Below, one piece after another: positions 21,839-35,389 of a stretch of 56,373 nucleotides of DNA. Numbering within the stretch: the first letter of the stretch is position 1; the number at the start of each line of letters is the position of its first letter. Source of the stretch: an uncultured Gammaproteobacteria bacterium (GTDB lineage: Bacteria > Patescibacteriota > Microgenomatia > Levybacterales > GWA1-39-11). The stretch spans positions 1 through 56,373 of the forward strand of contig CAZYWG010000012.1 in assembly GCA_964651815.1 (NCBI GenBank), given 5' to 3'. The notes below the pieces were generated by a model. It ran no database searches. It was not told where the DNA came from and was given only the letters and a program-made list of their open reading frames with translations. Made by a program: the position numbers and the translations under genes.

Positions 21839-22657
21839 TTGCCTTCTGTTACACAGTATGGGAAAAAAAAAGGAAGAGCTACTGCAGCAAAGATAAAAAG
21901 CAATACAGAACCTAGGTTGATAAGCGCAACGTTAAAAGGTGCAATACAAGAAAGAATTATCCCTCAAGATCACTCAAGTATTATTCCCGGAATCAATGTA
22001 AACGAGCTTAAGCGCTCGCTAGATCTTCTAAAATATGCACTTGACTACTCGGAAGCAATTGTAGACACGGTAAGAACCCCCTTGATTGTTCTCAATAAGG
22101 AGCTCCATGTATTAACTGCGAATAGGTCATTCTATGATACTTTCAAAACAACTTCGCTTGAAACAGAAAACAAATTTATCTTTGACTTAGGTGAGAAATC
22201 CTGGGACGTTCCCAAATTCAAAACACTACTCGAAAAAATCCTTCCGTCCAATACCCATCTTGATAATTATGAGGTGGAGATTAATCATCCTAAAATCGGA
22301 CATAGAACTATGCTACTGTCAGCAAGGCGTACGTATCGTCAAGTAAATAATACGGAAGCAATTCTTCTAGCCTTTGAAGACATTACTGCCCGCAGATTAT
22401 TGGAGCGTCAAAAAGATGATTTTATTGGAATTGTTTCTCATGAACTTAAGACTCCCCTCACAAGCATTCTTGGATATTCTCACCTACTAAAACAGCATCT
22501 TGAAAAAATCGAAGATAAGCGAGGAGAATATTTTCTTTCCAGAATGACCGGACAAATGGAAAGGCTGACGCAGCTTATGGCATCTTTTGTAAACGTCTAC
22601 AAAATACAGAGTGGTAAGCTCGCTCTGAGGAAAAAAAGTTTTCATTTGATAATATGA
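21839..22657 (+). CDS. PAS + HisKA part of a cytoplasmic sensor histidine kinase (frameshifted from the next ORF)
   Basis: PAS (EAIVDTVRTPLIVLN...ANRSFY) and H-box (VSHELKTPLTSI). Confidence 0.85.
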   Translation: MPSVTQYGKKKGRATAAKIKSNTEPRLISATLKGAIQERIIPQDHSSIIPGINVNELKRSLDLLKYALDYSEAIVDTVRTPLIVLNKELHVLTANRSFYDTFKTTSLETENKFIFDLGEKSWDVPKFKTLLEKILPSNTHLDNYEVEINHPKIGHRTMLLSARRTYRQVNNTEAILLAFEDITARRLLERQKDDFIGIVSHELKTPLTSILGYSHLLKQHLEKIEDKRGEYFLSRMTGQMERLTQLMASFVNVYKIQSGKLALRKKSFHLII

Positions 22658-23079
22658 TAGAAAGTATTATTGCCGATTTTCAATTCACCTCAAAGTCACA
22701 CGTTATCAATCATTTTGGATCTACCGGAGTTGAAGTACTTGCAGATCGCGATAGAATTATTCAAGTTTTGATAAATCTAATTACAAATGCAATAAAATAC
22801 TCTCCTAAAGCTGATAAAATCACTGTAACAACGAAAAAAATGGGAAGTAAAGTTGAGGTTTGTATCCAGGATTTTGGCCCCGGAATTCCAAAAGAAGAAC
22901 AAGAAAAAATATTTGAGAGGTTTTTTAGATCACACAACAAAGCAGAATCAAATATCTCAGGCTTGGGACTCGGACTCTACATCTCAACAGAGATAATACG
23001 AAGGCACAGAGGAAAACTTTGGGTGGAAAGCACAAAAGGAAAAGGTTCAAAATTCTACTTCTCTTTACCCATTAATTAA
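22654..23079 (+). CDS. HATPase_c part of the same histidine kinase
   Basis: N box (QVLINLITNAIKYS), G1 (DFGPGI), F box, G2 (GLGLGLYI). Confidence 0.88.
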   Translation: MIESIIADFQFTSKSHVINHFGSTGVEVLADRDRIIQVLINLITNAIKYSPKADKITVTTKKMGSKVEVCIQDFGPGIPKEEQEKIFERFFRSHNKAESNISGLGLGLYISTEIIRRHRGKLWVESTKGKGSKFYFSLPIN

Positions 23080-23115: not shown

Positions 23116-23967
23116 CTACATTTTTGCGTCGATGGCAATCATGATACAAAGAATGGTTATTAGCTTGAGTGAAAATTTAAATATATGGCGCGCCCAGACT
23201 TTGTCGTCTTTGGCTTTAAAACCGTCAAAGGCAAGTTTTAACCAATAAATGCCTAGCACCACTCCTACTACGAGGTAAAAATATCCTGCATATCCAAACG
23301 CTGTTAATGAAATTGTGGCGGCAATAAATGCAATTATATAGAACAAAATATGTATTTTAGTTATCTTAATTCCGCTTTTGACGGGAAGCACGGGGATTTT
23401 TGCCGCGGCATAATCTTTTAATCTGTAAATTGCTATTGAGTAAAAATGTGGCATTTGCCAAAGGACTAGAATTATAAATAATATAATGGCTCCCGCATCA
23501 ATGTGGTTACGAACGGCCGTGTAACCCGCCACCGGTGGGATTGCCCCTGAAACGCTCCCGATTATAGTGCTAAAAACAGAACGCCTCTTCCAGATGCTAT
23601 ACATAACAACGTAAAAAAATACGCCAACTGCTCCCACTAAAACTGTTAGAATGTTAGTAAACAAATACAAAACCGTAAAACCAATGACTCCCAAAACCGT
23701 TGCGTAAGTTATTGCGGCTTGCGACGTTACCGAACCCACAACTAGTGCGCGTTTTTTTGTCCTTTCCATTTTTTCATCAATTTTGCGGTCAAGAAGATTA
23801 TTGATTACGCAAGAAGAAGCAATTATTAAAGTGGTGCCACTTAACACTGCCGCAAATATTCCCAAATTGATCCTCCCGGCGGACGCTAGAAAAAACCCGG
23901 CCGCACACGTTATGAGATTTCCAATGATAATTCCAGGTTTTGTCAGTAAAAAATAAGTTTTAAACAC
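23116..23967 (-). CDS. cyoE: Heme O synthase (protoheme IX farnesyltransferase)
   Basis: LTKPGII, NNLLDRKIDEKMERTKKR, WQMPHF, DYAAAKIPVLP. Confidence 0.95.
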   Translation of the reverse strand: MFKTYFLLTKPGIIIGNLITCAAGFFLASAGRINLGIFAAVLSGTTLIIASSCVINNLLDRKIDEKMERTKKRALVVGSVTSQAAITYATVLGVIGFTVLYLFTNILTVLVGAVGVFFYVVMYSIWKRRSVFSTIIGSVSGAIPPVAGYTAVRNHIDAGAIILFIILVLWQMPHFYSIAIYRLKDYAAAKIPVLPVKSGIKITKIHILFYIIAFIAATISLTAFGYAGYFYLVVGVVLGIYWLKLAFDGFKAKDDKVWARHIFKFSLKLITILCIMIAIDAKM

Positions 23968-24013: not shown

Positions 24014-24421
24014 TTATTTCATTATCCCCTCTTCACTTTGTATAACCATGTTCATGTCACGAGACGACATATTGTAATTTAAGTGGTTCATAATCCAGAA
24101 AGACCCAATGATGATAATCAGAATAATACCGACCGTTGAAAGAAAAACAAATAAATTCCAGCGCATTTTTTCATCAGTTTTTGATTTTGCCACATGCAAG
24201 AAAAATATAAGCTGCACAATAAGTTGAAAAATGGCGAGCGCGGGTAGTAAAAGACTCATGGTTTGGTCAGTCGGTACTCTGTGACCTGAAGACAAGTGGA
24301 ACATAACTAAAAAATACGAACCAATTGTTAAAACCAGAGACAGTACAAATCCTACAATGTAAGACACGAGTTTGGAATTGATATTTTCCTTATTCGATTT
24401 GTCAACAGAAATATTTTTCAT
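24014..24421 (-). CDS. cyoD: Cytochrome o ubiquinol oxidase subunit IV
   Basis: SYIVGFVLSLVLT, QLIVQLIFFLH, GSFWIMNHLNYNM. Confidence 0.92.
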   Translation of the reverse strand: MKNISVDKSNKENINSKLVSYIVGFVLSLVLTIGSYFLVMFHLSSGHRVPTDQTMSLLLPALAIFQLIVQLIFFLHVAKSKTDEKMRWNLFVFLSTVGIILIIIIGSFWIMNHLNYNMSSRDMNMVIQSEEGIMK

Positions 24422-24996
24422 TACAATACTGCTCCCATAAGATATACAATAACAAAAATAAAAATCCAGACAATATCAAGAAAATGCCAGAATAGACTAA
24501 ACAATGTTAATTTTCTGACTGCACTTTTTGTGAGGCCGCGGCGGAATATGTAAAATATCAAAATTCCCAACCACAAAAGACCCGCTGTAATGTGAAGTCC
24601 GTGTGTCCCAACAAGTGTAAAGTACGACGACAAAAATGCGCTTTTTTGAAAAGTGTTTCCTTCACTAAATAAACGAGTGAATTCCGTAAGTTCCATAACC
24701 AAAAATGACGCTCCCAGGAGAAATGTTGCGCCGGTTGCCATAAGAACTTGTTTTTTGTTTTCTTGCTGCAATGCCAATAGCGCAAGTCCACATGTAAAAC
24801 TACTGGTAAGCAGAATTATAGTTTCTGTCAGGACAAACGGCCCATTAAACATATCTGCAATTGAAATACCACCAAAAGTATTATTATGAAGCACTGCATA
24901 AGCAGCAAAAAGGACAGCAAACATTAGTAGATCTGTCATTAAATATACCCAAAACCCAAAAACTACAGTGTCAGATGAAGATTCGTGTTTATCCAT
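24421..24996 (-). CDS. cyoC: Cytochrome o ubiquinol oxidase subunit III (probable start ATG 24996)
   Basis: [31 protein letters not shown]; GGAGGA upstream. Confidence 0.95.
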
Positions 24997-26962
24997 TTTT
25001 ATTCCTCCTATTCTCAATTTTTGCTACCTCTGCGGCAGTTACTACATATTCTGTTTCATCATCAAACGTTCGGATGATAACGCAAATAACAGCGCCTATT
25101 AGACCTGCTGCTGCAAGCCAAAATATATGCCAAACCATAGCAAAACCAAATATAAAAATGAATCCCGCAACATATATGCCAAGAGGTGTATTTTTGGGCA
25201 TATGGATATCTTCATACTTGTGGTTCGACTTATTTGTCCCGGCCTTCTTCATTTCCCAAAAGGCGTCGCGCGAGTTTACCTCCGGAACGATAGCAAAATT
25301 ATAAAATGGCGGTGGTGACGACGTTGACCATTCTAGTGTCCGGCCGTTCCATGGATCGCCCGTTGTATCAAGGTTTTGTTTTCTTTGCTTGATACTCACA
25401 ACAACTTGAACTACCTGTAGCATTGCCCCAAGCAAAATAACAAGAAACCCCAACCCGGCAATTATGAATAGCCCTTGCCAGCCGGTTGAGGCGTCGTAAT
25501 GGTCAAGCCTTCTTGTCGCGCCCATTACACCTAAAATATAAAGCGGCCCAAAAGACATAAAAAACCCAACCAGCCAACACCAGAATGCATATTTCCCAAG
25601 GCGCTCGTTGAGCTTAAATCCAGTCACCTTTGGAAACCAATAAGTAATACCCGCAAAAATACCAAATAACGCGCCTCCAATTATCATTGTGTGAAAATGC
25701 GCTACCAAAAACAAACTATTATGAAGCTGAAAGTCAGCAGGTGGCACTGCCAGTAAAACTCCCGCTAAACCACCGAACGTAAATGTGCTGATGTAGCCCA
25801 AAAACCAATACATTGGTGTCATAAATTTAATTCGCCCTTTATACATAGTTGAGACCCAATTAAAAATTTGAACGCCGGCCGGAATTGCAATAAAACTTGT
25901 GGTGATCCCAAAAAAAGCGTTTACGTCTGCTCCGGCACCCATGGTAAAGAAATGGTGTAACCATACAAGTAATGCGAGGAAAGATATGCCGAATGCGGCA
26001 AGCACTCCAGAAACATAACCTGTTAATCGCTTCTGGGAAAATGTTGCGACAACCTCAGAATAAACTCCAAATGACGGCAATATAAGGATATAAACCTCCG
26101 GGTGCCCCCACATCCAAATGAGATTCGTATACATCATTGCGTTACCACCTAAATCCGTTGTAAAAAAGTGCATACCAAACGTCCTATCAAGAGACAAAAG
26201 CGTAATAGTTGCCGTAAGTATTGGAAAAACAGTAACAACTAGAACCATACTAAATAAAGAAGTCCACGTAAACATAGGCATTTTCAAAAGGGTCATCCCC
26301 GGCGCGCGTTTTTTAATGATGGTCATTATAAAATTAATACCTCCAAGAAGAGTCCCAAGACCTGAAACCTGCAGACTCCAAATCCAGAAATCAACGCCAA
26401 CACCCGGGCTATATTGAAGTTCTGAAAGAGGCGCAATTGCAAGCCAACCTGTAGCAGCAAATTCTCCGCCAAACATAAAAAAAAGATTTACAAGTATTGC
26501 GCCGGCGACATATAGCCAGAAACCCAAAGTATTGAGAAATGGGGATGCAAGATCCCGGGCGCCAATTTGAAGCGGCAAAATGAAATTTATAAGGCCAAAG
26601 AGAAATCCCATGGTAACAAAAAATACCATGATGACACCGTGCGCCGTGAAAACTTGCTGAAAGTGGTCTGCATTGAGATACCCGTGTGAAGCGCCAACTG
26701 AAAGCGCCTGCTGCAACCAAATCATCCCTGCATCAAGTCCACCTCTGAATAACATTAATGAAGCAACAATTACATACATTATCCCGATTTTTTTGGGGTC
26801 GGTTGATGTAAGCCATTCGTTCCAAAGCCATTTCCAACGTTTTAAGTATATGACGAATACGAAAGCCGCAGCGCCAGCACCCAGCATGGCAACAGTCCCA
26901 CCAATCGTAAACCATTCGTGGGGAAGTGCTGCAAAAGTTAGTCTTCCAAATATTAATTCCAT
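24989..26962 (-). CDS. cyoB: Cytochrome o ubiquinol oxidase subunit I
   Basis: Six His ligands (FTAHG, GHPEVY, LHHFF, AHFH); quinol-site R..D and H..Q; D-pathway ARD; TRRL. Confidence 0.97.
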
Positions 26963-27002: not shown

Positions 27003-27881
27003 TTAACGTGCATTCTGTGAGCCACTTTCTGGCTGAGCCATAAATTTTCTGATTATATTATTATACAAATTCACGTCTGTTGAAGCGTAGAATGTTACGG
27101 GATTATTTTCGCTGGGGGAAGCCAATTTATTGTATTCCGTAAGGTCAAGCGTCTTCCCGGAGTTTTTAACTTCTTGCACCCAAGTGTCAAAATCTGCTTG
27201 CGAACTCGCGCGTGCCATGAACTTCATACCGGAAAATCCGGGACCATTAATTTCCGCGGCCGAACCTCTAAAATCTCCCGGCAAATCTGCAATAAGGTGG
27301 AGCTTTGATTCCATTCCTGTCATAGCATAGATCTGTCCGCCAAGGTTTGGAATCCAAAAAGAGCTCATGGGCGCATCAGCCGTCAATTCAAAATTGATTG
27401 GAGTTTGCGCGGGGAACTGAATAAAATTCACAGTTGCAATATTTTGCTCAGGATATATAAAAAGCCATTTCCACCTAAGAGCTACCACTTGTATTGTGAC
27501 GGGCTTGGAAGCAACATCGAGTGTTTTGTAAGGGTCAAGCGCATGAGTAGCTCTCCAATTAACAACACCGAGAATTAGAATGATTGCCGTAGGAAGTGCC
27601 CACCACGCAAATTCTAAGAATTTGTTGTGAACCGAATCGGGTGTATATTTTGATCCTGAATTCCCTTCTCTATATTTCCAAGCAACAAAGAAAGTCAAAA
27701 TTAATACGGGAATTATTACGCTAAGTCCTAAAAGGACGGTAAAACTTATTAATTCTCGTTCTTTTAGCGCAATCTCTCCTTTTGAATTGAACAAAGCTAT
27801 ATTATGTCCGTGCAACAATAACCACAAGAAAATAATCACATCAAACGCCAGAAAAATAAAAATAACAAGTTTCGATTTCAT
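27003..27881 (-). CDS. cyoA: Cytochrome o ubiquinol oxidase subunit II
   Basis: IQVVALRWKWLFIYPEQ, SFWIPNLGGQIYAMTGM; no CuA ligands; SAAEINGPGFSGMKF. Confidence 0.95.
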   Translation of the reverse strand: MKSKLVIFIFLAFDVIIFLWLLLHGHNIALFNSKGEIALKERELISFTVLLGLSVIIPVLILTFFVAWKYREGNSGSKYTPDSVHNKFLEFAWWALPTAIILILGVVNWRATHALDPYKTLDVASKPVTIQVVALRWKWLFIYPEQNIATVNFIQFPAQTPINFELTADAPMSSFWIPNLGGQIYAMTGMESKLHLIADLPGDFRGSAAEINGPGFSGMKFMARASSQADFDTWVQEVKNSGKTLDLTEYNKLASPSENNPVTFYASTDVNLYNNIIRKFMAQPESGSQNAR

Positions 27882-27964
27882 TCTTTCACGAGCCTTATTA
27901 TCATACCACTTTCAACTTTTTTCTATATTGTTTTATGGTTGAAAAAATAGTATATAATTATTTA

Positions 27965-28222
27965 ATGGTAATTCTTCTTCACATAATTATTGCGCTTTCA
28001 AGTGTAGCCTTCACCACATATGTATTTTTTCGTCCCTCAAAAACCAAGTTAAATATATCTTACTTTTTAGTTACACTTACAATAATCAGTGGTTCTTACT
28101 TAATAATAAGTAAACCAGCCCACATGGTACAATCCTGCGCTGAAGGTTTGATTTATATAGGCGTTGTCACAGTTGGAATAATTGCCGCGCGGAATAAACT
28201 TGCACACATATCAAACGGGTAA
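27965..28222 (+). CDS. Small 3-TM membrane protein divergent from cyoA (alternative start 27935)
   Basis: Three hydrophobic segments; His at the start of the first helix. Confidence 0.7.
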   Translation: MVILLHIIIALSSVAFTTYVFFRPSKTKLNISYFLVTLTIISGSYLIISKPAHMVQSCAEGLIYIGVVTVGIIAARNKLAHISNG

Positions 28223-28252: not shown

Positions 28253-28621
28253 TTAAGGCTTAACTAATTCTTTTATCAAATCGGCAAATTTTTCCGGCTC
28301 AAAATCGGACTTAATTATATATTTTACTGCCCCTTTTGACAGCGCAGTCTCCGCGTCTTTTTCGCTTGATAAATTTGTGAGGATTACAACCGGAATTGTC
28401 TTAGTTTGCTCATCTGATTTTAAATGATCCAAGACTTCCAACCCATTCATTTTTGGCATCATAATGTCAAGTAAAATCAGCGCGGGCATTAGTGTTTTTG
28501 CAAGTGTCAAACCCTCTTCCCCGTCTTTTGCAAGCTCGAGCTCATATCCAACCCCTGCAAGAATATTTTGATACATTCTCGCCATCATGGGATCATCTTC
28601 AACTATCAGTATTTTTGCCAT
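28253..28621 (-). CDS. Single-domain response regulator (receiver)
   Basis: ILIVEDD, LLDIMMPKMNG, VVILTN, YIIKS. Confidence 0.95.
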   Translation of the reverse strand: MAKILIVEDDPMMARMYQNILAGVGYELELAKDGEEGLTLAKTLMPALILLDIMMPKMNGLEVLDHLKSDEQTKTIPVVILTNLSSEKDAETALSKGAVKYIIKSDFEPEKFADLIKELVKP

Positions 28622-28642: not shown

Positions 28643-29674
28643 CTAATCCGAACCTCCTATATCCATCATACTCTCTCTATTATTTAATTTATCAACATAT
28701 GTCTTGTTTACTTCCGTAAGCTCCGTGTTTTTGACGGCCAGTTCTTCACTTCCAAGCTCAAGATCTATGTTATTTATCCGCAGCTCCTCCTTCATTGCAA
28801 ACCTTTCCAATTCAAATTTATACAACAGCTTGATGTTTAACCAAGAAAGTACTGTTGATAGAAACACAATTAGTATTGCAAATATAGCAACTGCTTCATA
28901 TGGATTATATAAACCTACCCTAAGACCCATCAAACCAATGAGTCCCACAACTGGAGTAAACACGACATAAATTACAAGAAGCCGCAGCGCAAATATGCTG
29001 CTTACCGTGTCTATAGTAAACATACCTATAAATCCCCTATTTGGCCACCGTAACCAAATTGCATGCCCTGCAACTATAAACATGATTGCCAAAGTTAGCG
29101 GCATATTACCAATGTAAACGTGCGAATTAGGCGATAAAAGTTGATAAACATAATTTAAGATGGTCATCATATTTATTACAACAATCGCAAGAATTAGTAA
29201 ATGAACCACGTGGAAACGGTGACTTGCTTTTATGCGCGGCAAAAGTAAAGCAACTCCAAATAGAGAAAAGTCTATGCCGCTGCTCAAAAACGTCTGCTTC
29301 TCACCCATCAAGCCAACAATTTGAGCAATACCAAACGCGAGTATTAAAGTTGCACAAAATATTGATGCAAGTGTAAAGACGGGCCTGAGACGGTCCGGGG
29401 AATTATTCCCGATTTGCGAAAAGGCAAGTTTCTCCTCCAATAGTAAACACGTCCCAATTAATATCAACGCAACAGATATTAACGGATCAATGTTTCTTGA
29501 GAAAAAAAAGAAATTTTTAAAGATCGCAATATTTAATACCCAACCAAACATGACTATTCCTACAATCCCAATGATCAAAATGCCTAATATGAAAGAGGTT
29601 TTTCTTAACATCAAGATGAGCTTTTTGTTCTCCGGCAAATGAAGGCTTGAGAATGAATATTTTGTATCAGGCAT
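28643..29674 (-). CDS. Polytopic membrane protein resembling the input domain of sensor kinases, with no kinase core
   Basis: About 8 TM helices and a short C-terminal coiled coil; no H-box or G-boxes; adjacent to the receiver gene. Confidence 0.6.
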   Translation of the reverse strand: MPDTKYSFSSLHLPENKKLILMLRKTSFILGILIIGIVGIVMFGWVLNIAIFKNFFFFSRNIDPLISVALILIGTCLLLEEKLAFSQIGNNSPDRLRPVFTLASIFCATLILAFGIAQIVGLMGEKQTFLSSGIDFSLFGVALLLPRIKASHRFHVVHLLILAIVVINMMTILNYVYQLLSPNSHVYIGNMPLTLAIMFIVAGHAIWLRWPNRGFIGMFTIDTVSSIFALRLLVIYVVFTPVVGLIGLMGLRVGLYNPYEAVAIFAILIVFLSTVLSWLNIKLLYKFELERFAMKEELRINNIDLELGSEELAVKNTELTEVNKTYVDKLNNRESMMDIGGSD

Positions 29675-29776: not shown

Positions 29777-30460
29777 CTAAGAATTACTAGCTGCTTGCGG
29801 AAGAAAGAATGCAATCTGACGGCTATGATGCCATTTCTCGCCAGGACTCTCCCAAACGTCACCGAGCCACAACCCATCAACAAAGCGATCGACGTAGAAT
29901 ATGACTGGACCACCATTACGGTCAGCCATAGGTTTCATATTCATCCAAATTGCCTCACCAACTTTTAGCTCACCTCCGTGTTGAAGTAAAATTTGATGCG
30001 CTGTCTCTGTGTAAACAGGCTCTAATCCCTTTTCATCACGAGCTTGGTCAATTTCTTCTGTTGTTGCAAATCTTCCTCTTGAATCTGGAACCAAAATGTC
30101 AACTGGTACAACTACAACTTCTCTTATGTGAGGATCAGGTTGTAAGGTGAATTCTGGACTCTCTGAAATAAGTGCTACATTTAAACCAACACCAGCACTC
30201 AAATTTTTGACTGCACCCAAAAGTTCTTGTTTTGACCGTCCACCATGTACAAGTGGCCAGTGGTGGGTGATGTTGCCTTCGAGTGTAAGAGGTAGTTCTG
30301 CTGGGTCTGGAGCAAATCTTTCAGGTAACAACGGGCCTCTTAAAGGAAAGTCTTTAAGCCCTGTTCTTCTTTGAAGTTCGGCTTGCAACTCTGCCTGTCT
30401 GCGAGCTAAATCCTGAAAACCAAATTGTCTGAGACCTGCCCCGGCCCGTTCCATTGTCAT
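29777..30460 (-). CDS. Hypothetical protein
   Basis: 227-aa ORF with a Trp-rich C-terminus (GLWLGDVWESPGEKW). Confidence 0.7.
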   Translation of the reverse strand: MTMERAGAGLRQFGFQDLARRQAELQAELQRRTGLKDFPLRGPLLPERFAPDPAELPLTLEGNITHHWPLVHGGRSKQELLGAVKNLSAGVGLNVALISESPEFTLQPDPHIREVVVVPVDILVPDSRGRFATTEEIDQARDEKGLEPVYTETAHQILLQHGGELKVGEAIWMNMKPMADRNGGPVIFYVDRFVDGLWLGDVWESPGEKWHHSRQIAFFLPQAASNS

Positions 30461-34555: not shown

Positions 34556-35389
34556 ATGTCTCCAATTCTGAAAATATTTACTAATATTCTATTATGTCCG
34601 AGAAAAACCCTAGTCCTTCTTTTATTTTTTTTACTACTTATTTTTTCCGCTAAAACATCTTTTGCGCAAACTACAGATCCATCCGTTGAGGGCGCAGCAA
34701 CTCTTGGGGTTGCCCACACTGTTGCAACAAACATAAAAAATTTAAAAGACGGCAGCGTTTTATCTGCCGGTTTACATGGCGCAATACTTTCAATTACGCC
34801 TTACGACCCACAAGTAGTTGGAGTTGTTGCAAGAGACGCCGGAATGATCTTTAACACCGGAAACACTTATAACAGCGTTCCGGTAATTTCTGTTGGAACC
34901 GTGTATATTTTGGTATCTTCCCAACAGGGAAATATTAAAAAAGGTGACTTACTTACCACTTCAACAATTGCAGGAGTTGCTGTTAAAGCAGTTAACTCTG
35001 GTTACGTCTTGGGCACGGCACTTGAGGATTATGCTAATTCCAATCCTAAAAAAACAGATAAAATTGCTATAAATCTTGATTTGCAATATTTTAATTCCAA
35101 ACCTACTTTAATTGGTACATTAACCGATATTTTCAAAATTGCGCTTCTGCCAACCAAAGATTCGCCAACTCCCATTTTCAAATACTTTTTTGCAGCTATT
35201 GTTGTTATAGGATCATTTGTTTTAGGGTTTTTAAGTTTTGGGAGGACTGCCGCCAAAGGTGTTGAAGCGTTAGGTAGAAACCCCGCGGCTAGTAAAATTA
35301 TTCATCTCGGAATTATATTCAATGTAGGCATAGTTGTAGCGATAGTTTTTGCGGGTTTAACGGTAGCATTTTTGATCCTAAGATTGTAA
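34556..35389 (+). CDS. Signal peptide + exported beta domain + C-terminal ATP synthase subunit c-like hairpin
   Basis: Signal peptide ending SFA-Q; C-terminus AAKGVEALGRNPAASKII matches the c-subunit polar loop (E-A/G-x-x-R-[QN]-P) between two TM helices; first gene of the atp cluster. Confidence 0.7.
   Translation: MSPILKIFTNILLCPRKTLVLLLFFLLLIFSAKTSFAQTTDPSVEGAATLGVAHTVATNIKNLKDGSVLSAGLHGAILSITPYDPQVVGVVARDAGMIFNTGNTYNSVPVISVGTVYILVSSQQGNIKKGDLLTTSTIAGVAVKAVNSGYVLGTALEDYANSNPKKTDKIAINLDLQYFNSKPTLIGTLTDIFKIALLPTKDSPTPIFKYFFAAIVVIGSFVLGFLSFGRTAAKGVEALGRNPAASKIIHLGIIFNVGIVVAIVFAGLTVAFLILRL

Follow-up and report, generated by a model that had tools for sequence, protein, structure and literature searches.

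The cyoB gene of the window, a stretch of 56,373 nucleotides (contig CAZYWG010000012.1, assembly GCA_964651815.1) from a bacterium of the candidate phyla radiation (CPR), encodes subunit I of a bo3-type quinol oxidase that carries glutamine and alanine in place of Lys362 and Thr359, the two K-pathway residues of the Escherichia coli enzyme (E. coli numbering is used unless stated otherwise). This K362Q/T359A replacement is genuine, well beyond chance or error, since the same glutamine is present in every close relative and, of the 27 sequences in the window's own subclade, 25 have the motif AGVQ. Judged from alignments and trees, lysine-free CyoB is a natural, conserved subfamily with members in CPR bacteria, Chlamydiae and Verrucomicrobia; its lysine-based K-pathway was abandoned once and never regained. 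The comparative data suggest that the enzyme is probably a working quinol:O2 oxidase whose proton supply does not depend on the lysine.

Lys362 has been regarded as both defining and essential in A-family haem-copper oxidases. Why they need a second proton channel at all, and whether its lysine carries protons or balances charge, are long-standing questions. The subfamily described here does without the lysine and, for the most part, without the entrance glutamate of subunit II, so that the question can be tested by residue swaps in E. coli bo3, the best genetic model.

The K-channel of the window enzyme

The window CyoB was aligned to E. coli CyoB (PDB 1FFT/8F68) by phmmer (861 bits), with no gap in helices VI–VIII. 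The E. coli numbering was rebuilt from the PDB alignment, and 22 textbook residues were found to fall at their published numbers. The helix VIII segment of the window protein, with AGVQ, aligns against IAIPTGVKIFNW of E. coli, and the codons CCG GCC GGC GTT CAA were confirmed at 25868-25882 on the minus strand. An initial sequence-only reading of the window had proposed a CyoB lacking both K-pathway residues (T359A, K362Q); alignment and codons bear this out, and the strand is added here. The residues and blocks concerned are as follows.

25868..25870, minus strand: codon CAA of CyoB Gln365, equivalent to E. coli Lys362 (alignment to E. coli CyoB)
25877..25879, minus strand: codon GCC of CyoB Ala362, equivalent to E. 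coli Thr359 (alignment to E. coli CyoB)
26006..26008, minus strand: CyoB Gly319, equivalent to E. coli position 316 in helix VII, facing 362 across the K-channel (alignment)
26096..26554, minus strand: D-channel and active-site block with Asp137, Asn144, His287, Glu289 and Tyr291 (E. coli D135, N142, H284, E286 and Y288)
26477..26914, minus strand: remodelled quinol groove with Trp17/Phe18, Trp82 and Phe161/Phe162, the head-group ligands R73, D77, H100 and E16 being kept
27612..27614, minus strand: codon GAA of CyoA Glu90, equivalent to E. coli subunit II Glu89 at the K-channel entrance (alignment 'kvEavvw' versus 'kflEfaww')

At the positions of K362/T359/S299/Y288 the window protein reads Q/A/S/Y, which departs from the A-family K-channel fingerprint (K/T/S/Y), defined as Lys354/Thr351/Ser291/Tyr280 in Paracoccus denitrificans numbering (PMC3084760). 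The alternative K-channel of the B-family does not describe it either, as the window enzyme has Q/A/S together with a complete D-channel. The subunit II entrance glutamate is present in the window CyoA (Glu90 = E89), a residue that is not conserved subfamily-wide (15/85).

The sequence-only reading had also held that the metal ligands, the His-Tyr pair, the D-pathway and the quinol-site residues are present, and all were located in the window CyoB: H106, H421, H419, H284, H333, H334, Y288 and E286, together with D135, N124, N142, T211, R71, D75, H98, Q101, R481 and R482. Among 208 homologues, the first eight of these and D135, N124 and N142 are 100% conserved, as are T211, T352, R481 and R482. 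The A-family D-channel set (D135, N124, N142, T211, Y61 and E286) is invariant, as are all redox ligands and the haem-propionate arginines, and D135, N124, N142 and E286 remain so across more than 300 sequences. The quinol site comprises the transmembrane (TM) helix TM0 and window residues R73, D77, H100, Q103 and E16 (E. coli R71, D75, H98, Q101 and E14).

The enzyme resembles E. coli bo3 in its operon order, in an end-to-end alignment of subunit I that includes TM0, in a CuA-free subunit II, and in sharing the six histidine ligands, H284-Y288, E286, the D-channel and R71/D75/H98/Q101/E14; members of the subfamily share about 60% identity with E. coli bo3. It differs at the K-channel (K362Q, T359A and L316G), in the quinol groove (P15W, I16F, R80W, S159F and L160F), in the lining of the D-channel (S145G and T204G), and at F368S and V389S.

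A lysine-free subfamily and its co-varying sites

Homologues were gathered as the 120 best matches from a collection of 5.8 billion proteins, 80 loci from species-representative genomes, the loci of relatives, and an even sample of 400 genomes from the phylum. Position 362 among the 226 aligned sequences was found to be Q in 158, L in 45, V in one, I in one and K in 21. Trees were rooted on QoxB-like sequences and built with FastTree from all 226 and with IQ-TREE from 119 non-redundant sequences, the IQ-TREE alignment having been stripped of columns 359 and 362. A single change between K and non-K suffices on the IQ-TREE phylogeny, and FastTree gave the same topology. The non-K clade (98 tips, SH-aLRT 91) joins a K-bearing sister, P0114, at support 100 in the IQ-TREE phylogeny, and in both trees the base is made up of K-bearing sequences: E. 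coli, one verrucomicrobial sequence, a 15-tip CPR clade and P0114. On this phylogeny, the loss of the lysine is secondary, nested within the bo3/quinol-oxidase branch with its all-K basal members. Within the non-K clade residue 362 changes about eleven further times, always from Q to L, I or V; no reversion to K was found, though Q to K takes one base change.

Position 359 behaves differently, switching state seven times on the tree. T359A marks the window's own 27-tip subclade (25 A, 2 S); outside it, Ala or Ser at 359 occurs, independently, only in sequences of the Planctomycetes–Verrucomicrobia–Chlamydiae (PVC) group. The double loss noted by the sequence-only reading is thus real as to both residues, but it is not a single private event: T359A and K362Q are separate and of different age. 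Its suggested check, whether AGVQ is conserved in the lineage, came out positively in the 25 of 27 subclade members, and an error or private mutation of a single genome, which it had named as the outcome that would overturn the finding, is clearly not what is seen. A second search, from a Rhabdochlamydia member, returned 120 further PVC homologues, named Ca. Protochlamydia phocaeensis, Rhabdochlamydiaceae, Waddliaceae and Verrucomicrobia, with Q in 118, L in two and K in none at position 362, and S in 82, A in 19, T in 14 and M in five at position 359. Overall, Q or L occupies position 362 in more than 320 homologues. The cyo operon is patchy within the phylum (17 of 401 sampled genomes), and both the K-type and K-less forms occur there.

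Two further observations concern the placement of sequences. Metagenome-assembled genomes recorded as 'uncultured Gammaproteobacteria bacterium' (L012-L014, L026, L027, L030, L035, L060, L066 and L070) have cyoB sequences 70-78% identical to the window gene that nest among CPR in the tree, and the taxonomy of these records is probably wrong. Outside the subfamily, the motif PSG(I/V)QVFAW, with Gln at the lysine site, was seen in fusions of subunits I and III of about 850 residues (P0137, P0144, P0151, P0163 and about 17 further ones), in part from Actinomycetota, with E286, Y288 and D135 kept. A search of representatives at 50% identity gave no resolution within CyoB and served only as an A-family baseline: Gln was found at the lysine site in 21 of 150 diverse A-family representatives, those checked being subunit I+III fusions. 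From this count, the lysine-free state seems commoner in the A-family than textbooks imply.

The loss of the lysine is accompanied by changes at the channel entrance in subunit II, where E. coli Glu89 corresponds to Rhodobacter sphaeroides E101. Position 89 of CyoA is E in 17 of 17 loci with a K-type CyoB, including the partner of P0114, and in only 15 of 85 K-less loci, being elsewhere V, Q, A, S, D, K and more. By parsimony, column 89 changed residue at least 34 times among the K-less loci but not once among the K-type loci, for which the same rate would predict about 11 changes (P ~1e-5). This pattern indicates that Glu89 is freed from constraint in the K-less subfamily, while the window enzyme has kept it. 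In raw counts, Glu89 is retained in 15 of 42 Q-type versus 0 of 43 L-type loci; a test relating Q or L at 362 to E89 retention found 1-3 phylogenetically independent pairs, too few for a comparison.

Inside the channel, a molecular dynamics (MD) study of the R. sphaeroides enzyme takes the M316-K362, P358-A319 and P315-S365 distances as channel widths (PMC9687966), and the helix VII numbering is the same in that enzyme and in E. coli bo3. A polar residue at 316 was found in 0 of 18 K-type, 16 of 158 Q-type and 36 of 47 L-type sequences. Counted by descent, Q gave way to L in 11 independent lineages, of which 8 have a polar 316 (N, T, S or Q), versus 6-10% of Q-type sequences, and several of the Q-type sisters already have a polar residue at this position. 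The relationship between 316 and 362 hence looks permissive or compensating, and non-obligatory. The Q-type sequences keep S299 in 158 of 158 and N365 in 133 of 158, which argues that the K-channel cavity is still constrained, and T352 is kept in 204 of the 205 K-less sequences of the 226-sequence alignment.

Several other sites changed on or near the branch on which the lysine was lost, a placement based on P0114 being ancestral at each: S145G (D-channel lining), F328L, F368A/S, V389S/A/G, T320A, S322G, A281M and Y173I/V/Q. T204G, also in the D-channel lining, is present already in the K-bearing P0114. All K-type sequences have Tyr at 173, a loop position that follows TM3, and this gives way to I, V or Q at approximately the K-loss branch; the window has I176 (codon 26435-26437). 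The quinol groove is likewise altered, with the clade-specific P15W, I16F/Y, R80W, S159F and L160F near-fixed (203-205 of 205) and F93Y also near-fixed in the clade. The ubiquinone groove is built by TM0, TM1 and TM3 (PMC13022660), and the window equivalents are Trp17/Phe18 for P15/I16 (TM0), Trp82 for R80 (TM1) and Phe161/Phe162 for S159/L160 (TM3). Because these groove residues are already found in P0114, remodelling of the groove is older than the loss of the lysine.

A substitute charged residue was sought in TM helices VI–IX and none was gained; the sole charges lost are R80 and K362. Compensation of A359 by new hydroxyls in the window subclade (S294, S/T353 and S325) was also considered and rejected, as these do not recur in the independent PVC lineages with A359, and the hydroxyl gains are treated as possibly a coincidence of lineage.

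Four genomes of Verrucomicrobia/Chlamydiae (G459, G463, G464 and G465) were found to hold both forms of CyoB, in loci L115-L118 (canonical K-type) versus L067, L084, L079 and L086 (K-less), with a mutual identity of 56-61%. The canonical paralogue has K362, M316, R80, S159 and L160, whereas the other is lysine-free and has the aromatic groove. Retention of the K-type paralogue beside the K-less one implies that the latter has a distinct function. The subfamily is a distinct isoform in which the quinol groove is remodelled, and some genomes hold it in addition to a canonical copy.

Proton delivery and comparison with other oxidases

How could an A-family oxidase work without its K-channel lysine? 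By comparison of sequences, the canonical K-pathway is dismantled in this subfamily: the lysine is gone, the entrance glutamate is drifting, and Thr359 is variable (T/S/A/M). In the reading judged probable here, protons would reach the binuclear centre during its reduction by a route independent of the lysine, most likely a neutral, water-filled polar wire through the former K-channel cavity. Such a wire would run over Gln362 or, from the facing helix, a polar residue at 316, would be helped by the bulky-to-small changes at 319, 320, 322, 368 and 389, and would be akin in its chemistry to the lysine-free K-analogue channel of the B-family. Alternatively within the same reading, the D-channel could carry all protons. 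The enzyme would presumably still reduce O2 and probably still pump protons, and the window enzyme, with Q362, A359, G316 and subunit II E89 kept, would be one moderately derived member. A working oxidase is favoured because 362 is only Q or L/V/I, S299 is fixed, T352 is kept, and a polar 316 tends to appear when Q is lost. The presence of a type II NADH dehydrogenase (NDH-2) adjoining the operon in 8 loci was also counted in its favour, as were the K-type paralogue retained in four PVC genomes, the precedent of lysine-free A-family cytochrome c oxidases, the 21 A-family representatives with Gln at the lysine site, and the canonical F1Fo operon of the host genome.

A number of points weigh against a rewired working oxidase. 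Position 316 is apolar in 3 of the 11 Leu lineages and also at the base of the big Leu clade, and with Gly at 316 and Ala at 359 the window enzyme would have a wire that depends on water alone. The hydroxyl gains linked to A359 (S294, S/T353 and S325), as mentioned above, are not repeated in PVC lineages. Spatial statements about the channel derive from helix numbering and one MD paper. The K362Q, K362L and K362M mutants of E. coli bo3 were reportedly inactive in work by Thomas et al. from 1993. The R. sphaeroides K362M mutant loses oxidase activity (PMC7601700). Finally, NDH-2, quinone prenyltransferase, ferrochelatase and cytochrome bd were not found in the host genome, and a low-flux, O2-removing role appears equally compatible with this gene content.

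The sequence-only reading had offered three explanations: a slow O2 scavenger, a peroxidase-like enzyme, or an oxidase with a rewired proton route. The last of these agrees best with the comparative data, because of the clade-wide constraint to Q or L, the release of Glu89, the partial compensation at 316, and the invariant D-channel and pump residues. A deliberately slow scavenger is a serious rival, although it is judged rather unlikely. Here the K-pathway would be dead without replacement, the binuclear centre would be reduced slowly, at a small fraction of the canonical rate, and the enzyme would remove traces of O2 without conserving energy, its low kcat giving a low apparent Km for O2. 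The relaxation of three K-pathway positions (362, 359 and subunit II 89), the occurrence of Leu362 with an apolar 316, and a host genome without NDH-2 or quinone and haem biosynthesis count in favour of this explanation, and the K-type paralogue of PVC genomes could then be the 'real' respiratory oxidase; an O2-scavenging role was proposed earlier for CPR cyo operons (PMC6031116). However, more than 300 sequences show no variation at D135, N124, N142 and E286, residues that matter for pumping and rapid turnover, 362 is confined to Q or L with S299 at 100% in the Q-type and polar compensation at 316, and the host genome has a canonical ATP synthase. Moreover, lysine-free A-family oxidases have been reported in acidophilic iron oxidisers, a respiring group.

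Conversion to a quinol peroxidase, which would now reduce H2O2 by a half-cycle that needs only the D-channel, is very improbable. Ultra-small symbionts have few peroxide defences, which was counted for this explanation, and haem-copper oxidases react slowly with H2O2, which was counted against it. The D-channel is intact, and the R. sphaeroides K362M mutant keeps full peroxidase activity while its oxidase activity is abolished (PMC7601700, citing Vygodina 1998), so that the sequence-only reading was correct in stating that loss of the K-pathway lysine blocks O2 turnover while peroxide-driven activity persists. Nevertheless, no residue change points toward peroxide chemistry, and positive support for this part of its proposal was not obtained. 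O-O splitting needs the cross-linked His-Tyr pair, the CuB ligands and Glu286, none of which varies, and the same loss of the lysine occurs in the cytochrome c oxidases of aerobic iron oxidisers. An artefact, a private mutation or a decaying pseudogene has a negligible probability. Nothing was found to suggest one besides a TIGR02843 score slightly under the cut-off (997 versus 1020), whereas the 657-residue frame is open, the operon keeps all five genes whole, 25 of 27 subclade members, assembled independently, share the residues, Q or L is found in more than 320 homologues, and the catalytic residues are conserved. Purifying selection on the residues of O2 chemistry and the D-channel, together with retention next to a canonical paralogue, excludes a pseudogene or artefact.

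A further proposal, made tentatively and with less assurance than that of a working oxidase, is that the subfamily constitutes a distinct A-family class that performs the reductive half-cycle without Lys362 or subunit II Glu89 and yet turns over and pumps. If so, the co-varying sites would be natural second-site suppressors of the classic lethal K362 mutation, namely a polar 316, small residues at 319, 320, 322, 368 and 389, and S145G and T204G in the D-channel. Moved into E. coli bo3, these sites would reveal whether the lysine acts as a proton carrier or a charge compensator.

Lysine-free A-family oxidases are already known. K-channel-less cytochrome c oxidases occur in acidophilic Fe(II) oxidisers, some Actinobacteria/Chloroflexi, and archaea (bioRxiv 10.1101/2020.03.01.968255; PMC8239418), and those of the acidophilic iron oxidisers lack K354 and COX2 E78 with the D-channel kept (bioRxiv 10.1101/2020.03.01.968255). 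These oxidases, described by Degli Esposti, are like the subfamily overall in that the lysine (P. denitrificans K354) is replaced, the entrance glutamate (P. denitrificans E78) is lost and the D-channel is kept. They differ in having CuA and haem A and in lying deep in the A-family, whereas the lysine-free bo3 enzymes arose by a secondary loss in the quinol-oxidase branch; in addition, they have a hydrophobic residue such as Ile at the lysine site, where the bo3 subfamily has mainly Gln, and the window enzyme keeps the entrance Glu. The window enzyme is a CuA-free quinol oxidase accompanied by a heme O synthase (haem A synthase was not searched for), and on these features it is a convergent analogue of the Degli Esposti oxidases and not a member of their group.

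The K-analogue channel of B-family ba3 consists of neutral Thr/Ser/Tyr and water, with no lysine (PMC3084760). Lysine-free, neutral proton delivery to the binuclear centre in Thermus thermophilus ba3 is thus the same chemistry as that proposed for the subfamily. Unlike the window enzyme, with Q/A/S and a complete D-channel, ba3 has no D-channel and a Thr/Ser/Tyr fingerprint, and its homology to the window CyoB is remote (E ~1e-4 to 1e-6). In the K362M mutant of R. sphaeroides aa3 and the K362 mutants of E. coli bo3, the same position is neutralised as in the subfamily, and these single laboratory mutants are inactive as oxidases (PMC7601700 for K362M). The natural K-less variants differ from them in being conserved under selection and in carrying many co-varying changes.

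Operons of cyo type were reported from soil Saccharibacteria, Doudnabacteria and Parcubacteria without quinone synthesis, according to two studies (Starr 2018, PMC6031116; Nicolas 2021, PMC8407418). They are the same operons and probably belong to the same clade as the lysine-free subfamily. The passages searched in PMC6031116 and PMC8407418 speak just of a 'discrepancy in the functional residues', with no mention of the K-channel, K362 or subunit II E89. No description of a lysine-free member among bo3 quinol oxidases was found in the literature, nor of an independent secondary loss inside the bo3 branch; likewise, no published account was found of the size of the subfamily, its spread in CPR and PVC, the decay of E89, the covariation at 316 or the co-existing paralogues. 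The cyo operons of CPR bacteria and environmental chlamydiae should be re-read in this light, as neither plain E. coli-like bo3 nor pseudogenes.

Operon, host genome and neighbouring genes

The window contains an intact cyoABCDE operon of five co-directional genes on the minus strand. Its order and CuA-free subunit II are those of a bo3 complex, the cupredoxin domain of CyoA having zero Cys by sequence inspection and hence no CuA cysteines. The genes, and a small gene that recurs beside such operons, are listed below.

27003..27881, minus strand: cyoA, quinol oxidase subunit II, 292 residues (NCBIfam TIGR01433, 284 bits versus cut-off 266; PDB 1FFT_B, 272 bits)
24989..26962, minus strand: cyoB, subunit I, 657 residues (TIGR02843, 997 bits; E. 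coli CyoB from PDB, 861 bits)
24421..25017, minus strand: cyoC, subunit III, 198 residues (TIGR02842, 234 bits versus cut-off 223.75)
24014..24421, minus strand: cyoD, subunit IV, 135 residues (TIGR02847, 87 bits versus cut-off 81)
23116..23967, minus strand: cyoE, heme O synthase, 283 residues (NF003348, 388 bits versus cut-off 285)
27935..28222, plus strand: small membrane protein, 95 residues, apparently with three transmembrane helices, family unassigned; recurs beside cyo operons

CyoA, CyoC, CyoD and CyoE each score above their own NCBIfam equivalog cut-off. CyoB matches the TIGR02843 equivalog over model positions 1-646 of 646 and is a near miss (cut-off 1020.35), and this cut-off was exceeded in just 4 of the 17 CPR genomes having a match.

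The host genome measures 1.36 Mb and is 95% complete. The sequence-only reading had added that the ATPase of the window appears unable to use a proton gradient, which is misleading with regard to the organism: a canonical atp operon, with subunit a and a carboxylate-bearing c subunit, is found on another contig (C9, 25434-31469), and this F1Fo enzyme could use a proton gradient. The ATPase operon in the window is a second one. Its first gene (34556-35389, plus strand) encodes a C-terminal c-subunit-like hairpin (GRNPAA...IIFNVGIVVAIVF) without the carboxylate, and no subunit a adjoins it.

Genes for cytochrome bd, a second haem-copper oxidase, ferrochelatase and polyprenyl synthase were not found in the host genome. 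NDH-2 was not found there either, the sole Pyr_redox_2 match (an open reading frame (ORF) of 342 residues with a CAPC motif) looking like thioredoxin reductase, and no quinone prenyltransferase was found, the second UbiA match looking on inspection like decaprenyl-phosphate phosphoribosyltransferase. Because quinone prenyltransferase and ferrochelatase are absent from this genome, haem and quinone are probably scavenged by the organism, as is proposed for other CPR bacteria (PMC6031116, PMC8407418).

As for electron input, an FAD-linked oxidase of about 550 residues (PF01565 and PF02913, GlcD/D-lactate-dehydrogenase-like) adjoins cyo operons in 18 loci (e.g., L082:10061-11710). The host genome has a homologue that is 47% identical (C2:144495-146126), the sole possible electron input found there, and this protein is a candidate electron donor to the quinone pool. 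NDH-2, which has no homologue in the host genome, lies directly beside the cyo operon in 8 loci, mostly of the Leu362 type (e.g., L057:7726-8913). NuoH was not found in seven PVC genomes.

The small membrane protein encoded at 27935-28222 has homologues of about 85 residues beside the operon in 37 other loci, with no Pfam match, and in one locus (L082) a homologue is fused to the C-terminus of CyoE. A His near its N-terminus looks invariant and a Cys is conserved, and the protein may serve these oxidases as an accessory or assembly factor not recognised so far. Upstream of the operon, two minus-strand ORFs (28643-29674 and 29777-30460; 343 and 227 residues) have no Pfam or NCBIfam match and are not conserved beside other cyo operons. 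A lone receiver-domain gene (28253-28621) adjoins the operon. A sensor histidine kinase appears to be divided between two plus-strand ORFs with a 4-base overlap, either naturally or through a frameshift; 21839-22657 matches the N-terminal and central parts of PhoR/PnpS-type kinases and 22654-23079 the C-terminal catalytic part.

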